From the IMG/VR virus record IMGVR_UViG_2778261251_000001: DNA of 29,693 nt. One strand, given 5' to 3'. The stretch is from a virus. Lineage: Duplodnaviria > Heunggongvirae > Uroviricota > Caudoviricetes. The translations under genes and the position numbers were made by a program. The notes beneath the pieces were generated by a model that did no database searches, was not told where the DNA came from, and worked only from the letters and a program-made list of their open reading frames with translations. This document shows positions 122-14,799 of the stretch, piece after piece. How positions within the stretch are numbered: position 1 is the stretch's first letter; the number at the start of each line of letters is the position of its first letter.

Positions 122-265
122 TTAGTGAATGCTTTTGCTTGATCTCAGTTTCAGCATTAATATCCATTTTTTATAAGCGTCGACGGCTTCACGAAACATC
201 TTTTCATCGCCAATAAAAGTGGCGATAGTGAATTTAGTCTGGATAGCCATAAGTGTTTGATCCAT
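122..265 (-). CDS. kil: Kil (FtsZ-targeting host killing protein), 47 aa
   Basis: C-terminal 47 aa of the 122..391 track ORF ([47 protein letters not shown]) match my recollection of lambda Kil; the upstream extension in the track lies in the cIII overlap and is probably not translated. Confidence 0.8.
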
Positions 266-398
266 TTTTTGGGACTCCTGGCTGATTAAGTATGTCGATA
301 AGGCGTTTCCATCCGTCACGTAATTTACGGGTGATTCGTTCAAGTAAAGATTCGGAAGGGCAGCCAGCAACAGGCCACCCTGCAATGGCATATTGCAT
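234..398 (-). CDS. cIII: CIII (FtsH/HflB inhibitor, lysogeny establishment), 54 aa
   Basis: Hand translation of minus strand from ATG at 398-396 gives [54 protein letters not shown], matching recalled lambda CIII; overlaps kil start in another frame as in lambda. Not in the ORF track because under 60 aa. Confidence 0.85.
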   Translation of the reverse strand: MQYAIAGWPVAGCPSESLLERITRKLRDGWKRLIDILNQPGVPKNGSNTYGYPD

Positions 399-470
399 GG
401 TGTGCTCCTTATTTATACATAACGAAAAACGCCTCGAGTGAAGCGTTATTGGTATGCGGTAAAGCCGCGC

Positions 471-782
471 TTAGGCGGCTGATGTTTCTTCTTTCAGGCT
501 TTCGAGATATTTACGTGGGTCGTCGTAACATTGGCATTCGCTGTACCAATCCACCCAGCGATCAGTAAGCCCCATCTCTGATAAATCTTCATCGGTAAGG
601 CTCTCATCCCACATCTCAAGGCCGTTAGCATTGCAGTAATCAGGCTTGATGTTGTTGTCATACTGAAAGGCGTCATAATCAGCCAGTGCGTCCATCAGGC
701 GAACACCCTCTTCAACACTTGCCACTTCTACAATGAACGGCTTCATAGGTACTTGCGGGATATGCCAGACACGTAATTTCAT
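471..782 (-). CDS. hypothetical acidic protein in the ea10 position of the pL operon
   Basis: 103-aa minus-strand ORF between cIII and ral, co-oriented with the pL operon; no family recognised with confidence. Confidence 0.55.
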   Translation of the reverse strand: MKLRVWHIPQVPMKPFIVEVASVEEGVRLMDALADYDAFQYDNNIKPDYCNANGLEMWDESLTDEDLSEMGLTDRWVDWYSECQCYDDPRKYLESLKEETSAA

Positions 783-10736: not shown

Positions 10737-10921
10737 ACGCCACAATTCAAACGATACCAGAACTTCTTATCCAGACACGAGGCAATCAGACCGAAGTGGC
10801 GAGGAGGCTTTCCTGTGCAAGAGGAACAGTGCTCAAGTACAACAGAGACAGCAAAGGCGAGCGTCACGCAATAGTTAACGGCGTCCTGATGGTCAAACAG
10901 GGCAAGAGGGGAAGACGATGA
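10733..10921 (+). CDS. ninH: NinH
   Basis: ...GNQTEVARRLSCARGTVLKYNRDSKGERHAIVNGVLMV resembles recalled lambda NinH. Confidence 0.75.
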   Translation: MNATIQTIPELLIQTRGNQTEVARRLSCARGTVLKYNRDSKGERHAIVNGVLMVKQGKRGRR

Positions 10922-11541
10922 GACTCGAAAGCGTAGCTAAATTTCATTCTCCAAAAAGCCCGATGATGAGCGACTCACCACGGGCTACAGCTTCTGACTC
11001 TCTTTCCGGTACTGATGTGATGGCTGCTATGGGGATGGCGCAATCACAAGCCGGATTCGGTATGGCTGCATTCTGCGGTAAGCATGAACTCAGCCAGAAC
11101 GACAAACAAAAGGCTATCAACTATCTGATGCAATTTGCACACAAGGTATCGGGGAAATACCGTGGTGTGGCAAAGCTTGAAGGAAATACTAAGGCAAAGG
11201 TACTGCAAGTGCTCGCAACATTCGCTTATGCGGATTATTGCCGTAGTGCCGCGACGCCGGGCGCAAGATGCAGAGATTGCCACGGTACAGGCCGTGCGGT
11301 TGATATAGCCAAAACAGAGCAGTGGGGGAGAGTTGTTGAGAAAGAGTGCGGAAGATGCAAAGGTGTCGGCTATTCAAGAATGCCAGCAAGCGCCGCATAT
11401 CGCGCTGTAACGATGCTAATCCCAAACCTTACTCAACCCACCTGGTCACGCACTGTTAAGCCGCTGTATGACGCTCTGGTGGTGCAATGCCACAAAGAAG
11501 AGTCAATCGCAGACAACATTTTGAATGCGGTCACACGTTAG
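10918..11541 (+). CDS. Q: late antiterminator Q (lambda type)
   Basis: 207 aa beginning MRLESVAKFHSPKSPMMSDSPRATASDSLSGTDVMAAMGMAQSQAGFG with CRDCHGTGRA...CGRCKG zinc-finger motifs, as recalled for lambda Q. Confidence 0.9.
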   Translation: MRLESVAKFHSPKSPMMSDSPRATASDSLSGTDVMAAMGMAQSQAGFGMAAFCGKHELSQNDKQKAINYLMQFAHKVSGKYRGVAKLEGNTKAKVLQVLATFAYADYCRSAATPGARCRDCHGTGRAVDIAKTEQWGRVVEKECGRCKGVGYSRMPASAAYRAVTMLIPNLTQPTWSRTVKPLYDALVVQCHKEESIADNILNAVTR

Positions 11542-11583
11542 CAGCATGATTGCCACGGATGGCAACATATTAACGGCATGATA

Positions 11584-11640
11584 TTGACTTTTTGAATAAA
11601 GTTGGGTAAATTTGACCCAACGATGGGTTAATTCGCTCGT
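11584..11640 (+). promoter_or_regulatory. late promoter pR-prime (-35 TTGACT 11584-11589, -10 TAAATT 11607-11612) with overlapping qut region
   Basis: Hexamers with a 17-nt spacer directly downstream of Q; sequence context matches recalled lambda pR-prime. Confidence 0.7.
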
Positions 11641-11752
11641 TGTGGTAGTGAGATGAAAAGAGGCGGCGCTTACTACCGATTCCGCCTAGTTGGTCACTTC
11701 GACGTATCGTCTGGAACTCCAACCATAGCAGGCTGAGAGGTCTGCAAAATGC

Positions 11753-11811
11753 AATCCCGAAACAGTTCGCAGGTAATAGTTAGAGCCTGCACAACGGTTT
11801 CGGGATTTTTT
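11753..11811 (+). terminator. tR-prime intrinsic terminator at the end of the short late leader (6S) transcript
   Basis: Long inverted repeat AATCCCGAAAC ... GTTTCGGGATT followed by a T-tract at 11806-11811, about 190 nt downstream of the pR-prime start. Confidence 0.7.
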
Positions 11812-11815
11812 ATTT

Positions 11816-11890
11816 GGGTCAGTCGTATAAAGGTCATTACGGAAGGCTGTTAACCTTCTTATCGTGGTTCGAGTCCACGCTGTCCCGCCA
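11816..11890 (+). tRNA. tRNA-like sequence, anticodon GUU (Asn), possibly slightly degenerate
   Basis: Hand-folded cloverleaf: acceptor GGGUCAG/CUGUCCC (one U-U mismatch), anticodon stem GAAGG/CCUUC with loop CUGUUAA, T-arm CGUGG-UUCGAGU-CCACG, discriminator G then CCA; D-stem has one mismatch. Confidence 0.45.
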
Positions 11891-11895
11891 AATAT

Positions 11896-11971
11896 GCTGG
11901 TTTAGCTCCAATGGTAGAGCGGTCGCCTTGTAAGCGAATGGGTAGCGGTTCAAGTCCGTTAACCAGCACCA
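11896..11971 (+). tRNA. tRNA-like sequence, anticodon UGU (Thr)
   Basis: Hand-folded: acceptor GCUGGUU/AACCAGC (7/7), D-stem GCUC/GAGC, anticodon loop CUUGUAA, T-loop UUCAAGU, discriminator A then CCA, 76 nt; one mismatch at the base of the anticodon stem. Confidence 0.55.
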
Positions 11972-12213
11972 TAACTGAGCCGTAGCCACTGGCTATCCTG
12001 AATTCATGAGTGATAGTTACGCTGCGGCCTTCTACACATGATCTTCGTGAAAGCGGGTGACAGGAGGTCGCGCTAACAACCTCCTGCCGTTTTGCCCGTG
12101 CATATCGGTCACGAACAAATCTGATTACTAAACACAGTAGCCTGGATTTGTTCTATCAGTAATCGACCTTATTCCTAATTAAATAGAGCAAATCCCCTTA
12201 TTGGGGGTAAGAC

Positions 12214-12537
12214 ATGAAGATGCCAGAAAAACATGACCTGTTAGCCGCCATTCTCGCGGCAAAGGAACAAGGCATCGGGGCAATCCTTGCGTTTGCAATG
12301 GCGTACCTTCGCGGCAGATATAATGGCGGTGCGTTTACAAAAACAGTAATCGACGCAACGATGTGCGCCATTATCGCCTGGTTCATTCGTGACCTTCTCG
12401 ACTTCGCCGGACTAAGTAGCAATCTCGCTTATATAACGAGCGTGTTTATCGGCTACATCGGTACTGACTCGATTGGTTCGCTTATCAAACGCTTCGCTGC
12501 TAAAAAAGCCGGAGTAGAAGATGGTGGAAATCAATAA
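12214..12537 (+). CDS. S: holin/antiholin S (dual start, S107/S105)
   Basis: [39 protein letters not shown]... as recalled for lambda S; ATG-AAG-ATG dual-start arrangement present. Confidence 0.9.
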
Positions 12538-13806: not shown

Positions 13807-14349
13807 ATGAATTATCCAACTATCGTTAACGGCATCGATTTCCGAGAACTGATTTTTGTGGCAAACAACGATCCGGTTACAGATTCTTTTATGGTGGCAA
13901 AAGCATTTGGAAAGCTGCCGAAGAACGTGGTTCGTGACATTGAGCGAACCATAGAAGCTTGCCCTCCTGAGTTTGATACAAAGCTCAACTTTGAGCTTTG
14001 CTATAAAAACAATGAGTTACAGAATGGTAAGCCGCAAAAATTCTACCGTCTACGCAAGGATGGGTTGATGCTTTTGGTTATGTCCTACACCAAAAAAGAA
14101 GCAATGCGTATCAAAATTGCTTACATCAACGCATTTAACTGGATGTACGCCATGCTTCAGGTTGGTCATCGTCAATTTGAAGAAGAGAGAAATGCCGTAA
14201 TGCTGGAGTACATGAAAGAGAAGGATGTTGCCAGCATGTCAGGTCGCCTGCTAAATCGCTGGGGCAAAATTAAGAAGCCACAGTTGCTGGCTAGAATTGA
14301 ACGCCTTGAACAGCACGGGCAAACCGTAATCCCCGGACTCATCAATTAA
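13807..14349 (+). CDS. rha: Rha-family phage regulatory protein
   Basis: 180 aa; N-terminal region FVANNDPVTDSFMVAKAFGKLPKNVVRDIERTIE resembles the Rha family; P22 carries rha at the equivalent position between lysis genes and gene 3. Confidence 0.7.
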   Translation: MNYPTIVNGIDFRELIFVANNDPVTDSFMVAKAFGKLPKNVVRDIERTIEACPPEFDTKLNFELCYKNNELQNGKPQKFYRLRKDGLMLLVMSYTKKEAMRIKIAYINAFNWMYAMLQVGHRQFEEERNAVMLEYMKEKDVASMSGRLLNRWGKIKKPQLLARIERLEQHGQTVIPGLIN

Positions 14350-14556
14350 CGGCAGTACCGCGAAACAACCCAAGCCAGTAAGTGGGGAAATAACTGAAAG
14401 ATGAACCTCCAGCCTTATGGCAAAAAAGATTCTTTGTGGTGGCGGACTGATGGAAAGACATCGGATAGAATAAAACAGTGGCTAGGGTAGCTCCCGAAAA
14501 GCGGAATCGTCACCGCCAGCCACTGAATCTATGACGAACAACTAGACGAGGTTGAT

Positions 14557-14799
14557 ATGAGTGAAATTGATAAAATAATAAATGGTACATGTAACTTTCA
14601 ATCAATGCCGCCAGGTAGTTATGTAAAACAATGTAGTGAAATAGTTAATGGTCAGCTTGTAATGTCAAATGCAGGACGTGGAGTTTCTACGGATGAAAAA
14701 AAATCAATAAATGAAGCCCTATTAAGCATCAATGTTTTTGACTTGTTTCGCCCATCTTGGGTTATTTTGCAAAATAGTAGTCAATTCCCACATTATTGA
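14557..14799 (+). CDS. hypothetical 80-aa protein encoded in an AT-rich segment
   Basis: GAGG Shine-Dalgarno 5 nt upstream; base composition visibly more AT-rich than flanking phage DNA; followed by its own terminator; no family recognised. Confidence 0.45.
   Translation: MSEIDKIINGTCNFQSMPPGSYVKQCSEIVNGQLVMSNAGRGVSTDEKKSINEALLSINVFDLFRPSWVILQNSSQFPHY

Follow-up and report, generated by a model that had tools for sequence, protein, structure and literature searches.

The window analysed here, a stretch of 29,693 nucleotides (IMG/VR record IMGVR_UViG_2778261251_000001), comes from an HK620/IME10-like (P22-like) phage or prophage that carries Q, PR' and tR' of the lambda type. Two tRNA genes, for Asn(GUU) and Thr(UGU), lie in tandem between the terminator tR' and the lysis genes S, R and Rz, which are recognized by Pfam from 12214 onward (Table 1). 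The start of the tRNA-Asn gene directly adjoins the T-tract of tR'. The terminator hairpin itself (11753-11807) has a predicted folding energy of -31.7 kcal/mol (z = -5.0), and none of 200 shuffled sequences folded as stably. Elsewhere in the window, a match to the int-alpA RNA (42 bits versus a gathering score of 35.8) is located between a Rha/ORF11CD3-domain ORF and a small ORF, upstream of the gp3 small terminase. At the left end, a lambda cIII thermoregulator element (88.5 bits) is found alongside a Kil-domain ORF and a homologue of the P22 gp17 superinfection-exclusion protein, which together identify the early-left arm as a lambda/P22 mosaic.

Table 1. Features of the Q-S junction and other elements of the window referred to in the text.
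Feature	Position	Strand	Basis
Late antiterminator Q, lambda-type	10918-11541	+	Pfam PF03589 Antiterm, E 1.3e-57; aligns with lambda Q and downstream region
Late promoter PR' (TTGACT, 17-nt spacer, TAAATT)	11584-11612	+	Promoter scan; near-identical to lambda PR' region
Terminator tR', long hairpin (11753-11807) followed by T-tract TTTTTTATTT (11806-11815)	11753-11815	+	RNA fold
tRNA cassette, 159 bp	11814-11972	+	Boundaries from lambda comparison
tRNA-Asn(GUU), 75 nt	11816-11890	+	ARAGORN, Rfam RF00005
Anticodon of tRNA-Asn	11849-11851	+	
Spacer AATAT, 5 nt, between both tRNAs	11891-11895	+	Sequence
tRNA-Thr(UGU), 76 nt	11896-11971	+	ARAGORN, Rfam RF00005
Anticodon of tRNA-Thr	11929-11931	+	
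Lambda-like untranslated leader up to the holin gene	11973-12213	+	First 240 nt (11973-12212) 97.1% identical to lambda
Holin S, first protein-coding gene of the late operon	12214-12537	+	Pfam PF05106 Phage_holin_3_1, E 2.4e-30
Rha/ORF11CD3-domain ORF	13807-14349		
int-alpA RNA	14475-14537	+	Rfam RF02996
Small ORF	14557-14799		
Kil-domain ORF	122-391	-	
Lambda cIII thermoregulator element	353-411	-	Rfam
P22 gp17 superinfection-exclusion homologue	471-782	-	

Across the whole 29.7-kb window ARAGORN called exactly two tRNA genes, Asn(gtt) and Thr(tgt), both on the plus strand and together covering the interval 11816-11971 for which the original prediction had proposed tRNAs with these anticodons. 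Matches to Rfam RF00005 extend over the full model (positions 1-71 of 71) and reach 55.3 bits (E 1.6e-9) for tRNA-Asn and 61.2 bits (E 3.8e-11) for tRNA-Thr, the gathering score being 29 bits. Host tRNAs score 72.6 (asnT), 73.8 (thrU), 53.4 (tyrU) and 64.9 bits (glyT); the phage tRNAs fall 12-17 bits under asnT and thrU, yet they lie inside the range of genuine host tRNAs. Together with annotated homologues in other phages and the covariation described below, these calls uphold the assignment of both genes.

Both genes encode the 3' CCA that had been read from the sequence (11888-11890 and 11969-11971). tRNA-Asn has the discriminator G73, the anticodon arm GAAGG-CUGUUAA-CCUUC and a complete set of the core nucleotides U8, A14, G18 G19, U33, purine 37, T-loop UUC and 3' CCA. 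tRNA-Thr, with G1-C72, C2-G71, A73 and the anticodon arm GUCGC-CUUGUAA-GCGAA, has all of these core nucleotides except at position 14 (window 11909), where the nearly universal A14, the partner of U8, is replaced by C; the allele family conserves C14, apart from a few members that have T or G instead. Position 16 of tRNA-Thr is A, and that of host thrU is U. The one or two stem mismatches expected in each tRNA are U4·U69 in the acceptor stem and U13·U22 in the D stem of tRNA-Asn, and G27·A43 in the anticodon stem of tRNA-Thr. The established identity elements of E. coli AsnRS, G34, U35, U36 and G73, are all present in the window tRNA-Asn. Those of ThrRS, G1-C72, C2-G71, G35 and U36, are all present in the window tRNA-Thr and do not vary among its 15 alleles. 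Folded to minimum energy, tRNA-Asn forms a cloverleaf (z = -1.7) and tRNA-Thr a different structure (z = -1.5); single-sequence folding is uninformative as a test, and covariance models and covariation were used instead.

The flanks of the cassette are 97-98% identical to lambda (97.8% over the 270 nt ending at 11813). Identity ends at 11813/11814 and returns at 11973, which agrees with the original prediction that divergence from lambda begins after the tR' T-tract and that lambda-like sequence resumes up to S. In lambda, the place of the cassette is occupied by a 163-bp segment, and an alignment of the two gives a local score of 10, compared with 9.3 ± 1.5 for shuffled sequences, 185 of 500 of which reach 10. 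Since the lambda segment in the same place is unrelated, the cassette represents a replacement and not a simple insertion; the tRNAs do follow the tR' T-tract as originally proposed, but 159 bp have been exchanged for 163 bp. No tRNA was called by ARAGORN in the 163-bp lambda counterpart, and this blank result and the shuffle-level alignment rule out that the lambda segment is a decayed tRNA pair.

The cassette and its identification have been known since the genome papers of phage 21, Sf6 and SfI. The 156-bp pair is identical to that of SfI (156/156) and nearly so to those of HK446 (NC_019714; 155/156, 99.4%) and phage 21 (AJ237660; 154/156, 98.7%), the GenBank sequences used for the allele comparison. 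The difference from HK446 is at window position 11921, position 26 of tRNA-Thr, which is G in the window and A in HK446 and phage 21; phage 21 differs in one spacer base as well, and spacer position 11893 is T/C polymorphic among relatives. In the IMG/VR sample the exact window tRNA-Thr sequence with G26 occurs at 15 loci, against 57 for the commonest A26 sequence. tRNA-Asn is 100% identical in Sf6, phage 21, mEp506, ST160 and JLK-2012. Both tRNAs are annotated in Sf6, where a note calls them 'similar to phage 21', and in SfI, mEp506, Kapi1, BTP1 and others, but the GenBank record of HK446 annotates neither. The SfI paper reports that Asn(GUU) and Thr(UGU) genes follow Q in tandem, likewise for Sf6, ST64T, PS3 and phage 21, and the tandem tRNA genes are also discussed in the phage L paper. 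Of 5426 complete E. coli genomes, 369 contain the cassette, with RefSeq annotations for both genes, and 80 genomes have the whole lambda-type Q-to-S interval with the cassette (11540-12220, matched over at least 80% of its length). Three different antiterminators are known to precede the cassette: the lambda-type Q, the 21-type Q and a Q of 489 nt that occurs in SfI and JLK-2012. Asn(GUU) genes are also located next to or near Thr(UGU) genes in P1 and N4-like phages, which were matched via the Thr half alone, in the SSU5-like phage Cyrano, where the match spans both tRNAs, and in JLK-2012 and Klebsiella phages.

Several relatives depart from the common arrangement. The annotated 'tRNA-Thr' of JLK-2012 (L008:681-756) has a 5' half of the phage type (GCTGGTTTAGCTCCAATGGTAGAGCA), a thrU-like 3' half and a broken anticodon stem; it receives no ARAGORN call and 49 bits with Rfam, and looks like a recombinant of phage and host Thr(UGU) genes. 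In ST160 (L007:681-749; also in L and ST64T according to the literature), a divergent tRNA-like sequence takes the place of the second tRNA (Rfam 42.1 bits, no ARAGORN call), and is read in the phage L paper as Leu(UAA); the first gene is a tRNA-Asn 100% identical to that of the window. In a prophage of E. coli JNE131328 (NZ_AP027212.1, 869866-871227), the Q-tRNA-S interval aligns in two pieces, and the gene inserted between them carries the annotation HNH endonuclease; it may encode a homing endonuclease beside the tRNAs. A tciA gene is located downstream of the Asn-Thr tRNA genes in both P1 (L011) and JLK-2012 (L008), the P1 tRNAs being alleles different from the lambdoid ones, and this hints at a shared tRNA-tciA module in these two phages.

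A function has been assigned to near-identical tRNA-Thr alleles. In P2-lambda interference, cell death results from P2 Old cutting off the anticodon arm of the host tRNA-Thr(UGU), which is encoded in E. coli by the single-copy gene thrU; the cleavage sites follow the C in paired CNG motifs (positions 28-30 and 40-42) (Govande et al., PMC12445682). The tRNA-Thr(UGU) of phage 21 protects against P2-OLD and resists cleavage in vitro, which has been ascribed to C28U/G42A and a shorter anticodon stem (PMC12445682). The tRNA-Thr(UGU) of HK446 brings plaque formation of OLD-sensitive phages back to near wild-type levels, whereas extra host thrU, unlike the phage alleles, gives no protection against Old (10.64898/2026.07.10.737580). 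Because rescue depends on the UGU anticodon, a mature, charged tRNA-Thr is strongly implied. A library screen in the same study traced HK446's own OLD escape to the protein Oad2 and not to the tRNA, and the authors consider that the tRNA may serve another purpose (10.64898/2026.07.10.737580). The anti-Old role of the cassette's tRNA-Thr is already published, in 2025-26, for the phage 21 and HK446 alleles.

The anticodon arm of the window tRNA-Thr, GUCGC/GCGAA, reads UCG at positions 28-30 and CGA at 40-42, where thrU has CUG and CAG, and its pair 27·43 is G·A. It combines the features of the Old-resistant type: the anticodon is UGU, the CNG motif is changed and the anticodon stem is shorter. 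The mismatch G27·A43 is a published determinant of Old resistance and not a sign of decay. The explanation that we favour, with a probability of roughly three in four, is that the late operon of the phage opens with two tRNA genes that are functional, of which tRNA-Thr would be a cleavage-resistant spare and tRNA-Asn probably likewise, with codon capacity as an additional benefit. The host thrU tRNA is the sole E. coli tRNA with a UGU anticodon reading ACA; it is the primary target of Old, and PARIS AriB and HepS cut it as well. In the proposed mechanism, the phage tRNA-Thr(UGU), judged by the function of near-identical alleles, would act as its cleavage-resistant spare. Resistance would stem from the loss of the paired CNG motif (U28/A42 for C28/G42) and the shortening of the stem by G27·A43.

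The case of tRNA-Asn is less direct and leads to other tRNA-cleaving defences. The tRNAs cut by PARIS AriB include Lys(UUU), Thr(UGU), which is a prime target, and Asn(GUU), a secondary one; HepS targets thrU. AriB cuts at U36AAUC|A41; in the PARIS paper a change of U39 abolishes cleavage of tRNA-Lys, and U16 contributes to recognition, since U16C in tRNA-Lys impaired cleavage. Full rescue from PARIS needs the T5 Asn variant, and tRNA-Lys(UUU) is required against B185 PARIS. In the kinetics reported for Old, the host Asn(GUU), Lys(UUU) and Val(UAC) tRNAs are all cleaved more slowly than thrU (PMC12445682). Asn is not among the preferred OLD targets in 10.64898/2026.07.10.737580, which speaks of a single HK446 tRNA and leaves tRNA-Asn unmentioned.

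The host tRNA-Asn arm, GCGGA/UCCGU, contains both a paired CNG (CGG/CCG) and U36AAUC, and the phage arm, GAAGG/CCUUC, has AAG/CUU and U36AACCU and lacks both the CNG and the AriB motif. Around the AriB site the window tRNA-Thr reads U36AAGCG with G39 and G41, and neither window tRNA has the U39 of the AriB context (G39 in Thr, C39 in Asn). Avoidance of CNG was rejected as a general trait of the window's Asn family, as 4 of its 16 alleles have CAG/CUG, a paired CNG. tRNA-Asn(GUU) would probably do for host tRNA-Asn, the secondary Old and AriB target, what tRNA-Thr is proposed to do for thrU. A fuller reading, to which we would give slightly less than even odds, is that tRNA-Asn is also cleavage-resistant, that its determinants are U4·U69, U13·U22 and the absence of CNG and UAAU from the arm, and that this resistance may explain why Asn came to be paired with Thr in separate events in the lambdoid, P1, N4-like and SSU5-like phages.

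Codon use suggests a further contribution. The comparison between phage and host that had been put forward as a check, made over the whole window against a 50-kb K-12 sample, shows that ACA and Asn codons are enriched in the window: ACA amounts to 15.1 versus 5.2 per 1000 codons (about 2.9-fold) and to 29% versus 10% of Thr codons, and Asn codons to 50.7 versus 35.3 per 1000 (about 1.4-fold). Both tRNAs may also add decoding capacity for these phage-enriched codons, and a codon-supply role is compatible with the data. We regard it as unlikely, although worth serious consideration, that supply is the only role of the cassette, that is, that it merely provides more decoders for ACA and AAC/AAU in late synthesis and has no part in escape from defence. 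E. coli K-12 already has four asn tRNA genes, and the most abundant late protein avoids ACA: only 3 of the 43 Thr codons of the coat gene are ACA, which makes ACA supply for the coat protein a weak proposal that we set aside. The same gene has 22 AAC versus 2 AAT, a preference that echoes the phage L paper and speaks for supplementation. The single copy of thrU and the ACA frequency in SfI (17.3 versus 7.1) also favour it, but the SfI authors found no codon bias explaining tRNA-Asn. Supplementation alone also leaves the conserved G27·A43 and the altered 28-42 pair unexplained, both of which are explained by the Old-resistance data, and extra host thrU fails against Old where phage alleles succeed.

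The expression of the two genes can be outlined from their position. A promoter scan of 11400-12400 picked out PR' as the single promoter-like sequence preceding the tRNAs; no dedicated tRNA promoter was found between PR' and the cassette, for which this crude scan is weak evidence, and the minus strand of the same interval gave no promoter-like hit. Transcription from PR' would reach the tRNAs when Q lets RNA polymerase pass tR', and in lysogens there may be low-level tRNA transcription by terminator read-through. Host enzymes would excise both tRNAs, RNase P at the 5' ends and endo- and exonucleases at the 3' ends, and no CCA addition is needed because CCA is encoded. In the BTP1 lysogen transcriptome paper, the two tRNA genes are set aside in listing five genes with TPM >100, by our reading implying that the tRNA genes are also highly expressed. 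Published lysogen transcriptomes of phages with the same cassette contain antisense signals: the one in Kapi1 faces the tRNAs together with a neighbouring gene for a hypothetical protein, and the one in BTP1 falls between the tRNAs and the holin gene. By analogy, the counterpart in the window would be about 11816-12213 on the minus strand. Timing is a difficulty, as the tRNAs are transcribed late and Old and PARIS are triggered by early proteins. ACA is frequent in early genes, among them Q, where it makes up 5 of the 12 Thr codons, and these genes need ACA to be decoded ahead of late transcription. A supply confined to the late phase would therefore seem to come too late, unless a contribution is made by read-through or basal expression.

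The position behind tR' also invites a very improbable alternative, in which the cassette is an RNA-processing or recombination element, either providing RNase P/RNase E cut sites that free the late mRNA from its leader or serving as a linker for mosaic exchange of Q and lysis modules. An RNase P cut at tRNA-Asn, directly after the tR' T-tract, would indeed free the leader hairpin, and the cassette boundaries are sharp, with different Q types joined to different lysis modules. However, lambda manages without the cassette, the conserved anticodons and identity elements would be unexplained, and Asn plus Thr recur in unrelated phages outside the late leader. Slightly less probable still is that the cassette makes up for a host tRNA gene which the integrating prophage has disrupted, a possibility raised for HK446 by the authors of 10.64898/2026.07.10.737580. 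Many relatives do integrate into tRNA genes such as thrW. However, the P22-like attP rebuilds an intact thrW upon integration, thrW encodes the CGU and not the UGU isoacceptor, tRNA-Asn would be unaccounted for, and the cassette occurs in phages with different integration modules and is located in the late operon and not beside int.

Whether the genes are maintained was addressed with their alleles. When IMG/VR was scanned for Asn and Thr anticodon loops in tandem, 120 loci were obtained. They contain 33 different sequences for Asn and 34 for Thr, of which the window's own allele families (16 Asn, 15 Thr) formed the covariation set. Invariance of the anticodon loop in the IMG/VR set was discarded as evidence, since positions 30-40 were preset by the scan pattern. 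With the caveat that these positions were fixed in both tRNAs, compensatory changes are observed in tRNA-Asn at three pairs (6-67, 7-66 and 28-42), with 89.6% of cells paired compared with 34-55% in slid controls, and in tRNA-Thr both-side changes are observed at 10 of 21 pairs, with 94.9% of cells paired compared with 25-47%. For Asn and Thr alike, the covariation score was reached by none of 500 shuffles and was above every slid control. The mismatches recur across alleles: of the 16 Asn alleles, 15 lack a pair at 4·69 and all lack one at 13·22, and none of the 15 Thr alleles is paired at 27·43, where one divergent allele has A·A instead of G·A. Compensatory stem changes combined with conserved mismatches point to selection and not to decay.

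A second tRNA-Asn family (15 IMG/VR loci; GGGTCAGAAGCACAGCGG...) shares the window's acceptor stem including U4·U69 and has entirely different D, anticodon and T arms, which suggests that the mismatched acceptor stem may itself be under selection.

That the two genes are decaying or non-functional relics, or chance cloverleaves riding in a mosaic junction, is scarcely credible: Rfam scores under the host counterparts, one or two stem mismatches per tRNA, C14 in the Thr D loop and a second gene broken down in some relatives (the JLK-2012 chimera and ST160, where ARAGORN is silent) would fit it, but E-values of 1e-9 to 1e-11, scores within the host tRNA range, compensatory double changes, conservation of the mismatches themselves and the biological activity of alleles one base apart, outside the anticodon arm, all stand against it. 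Of the options left open by the original prediction, 'decaying' is contradicted by the covariation and the mismatches conserved across alleles, and 'not tRNAs at all' by the ARAGORN and Rfam calls. For annotation, conserved stem mismatches in prophage tRNAs are no ground for a pseudogene flag.

Stx-converting lambdoid phages such as 933W carry the ileZ-argN-argO tRNA genes between Q and stx. These resemble the window in having tRNA genes in the late-operon leader downstream of Q, and differ in their Ile/Arg rare-codon specificities and in sharing no sequence relationship. The original prediction was right that tRNA genes at the Q-S junction are known from Stx phages and that the anticodons differ here, but the Asn/Thr pair is itself usual at this position, in phage 21, Sf6, SfI and hundreds of E. 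coli prophages. The cassettes of phage 21, Sf6, SfI, HK446, mEp506, Kapi1 and BTP1 likewise lie directly after tR', with the same order, 5-nt spacer and anticodons, and the synteny of Sf6, mEp506 and SfI, a tandem Asn(GUU)-Thr(UGU) pair upstream of the holin gene, is that of the window. In contrast to the window with its lambda-type Q/PR'/tR', Sf6 and phage 21 have a 21-type Q region, and the window tRNA-Thr allele differs from those of phage 21 and HK446 in carrying the minority form G26.

Among known defence-related tRNAs, the closest are tRNA-Thr21 and the HK446 allele, whose anticodon arms are identical to that of the window, with U28-A42 for C28-G42 and G27·A43, and which differ by one base (A26G) outside the anticodon arm. 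They belong to a group of nuclease-resistant tRNA-Thr(UGU) molecules countering P2 Old that comprises tRNA-Thr21, tRNA-Thr6 and the HK446, T4 and Bas32/33 alleles. The point of wider use is tRNA-Asn, which pairs with tRNA-Thr in several unrelated enterobacterial phages and matches the secondary Old and PARIS target; its role bears on whether temperate phages carry minimal, tailored sets of anti-tRNase tRNAs. Compared with the T5 tRNA-Lys/Thr/Asn set directed against PARIS AriB, the window has no tRNA-Lys(UUU), as ARAGORN called only Asn and Thr in its whole length, and the sequences are unrelated beyond general tRNA features, but Thr(UGU) and Asn(GUU) are two of the three rescue specificities of T5.
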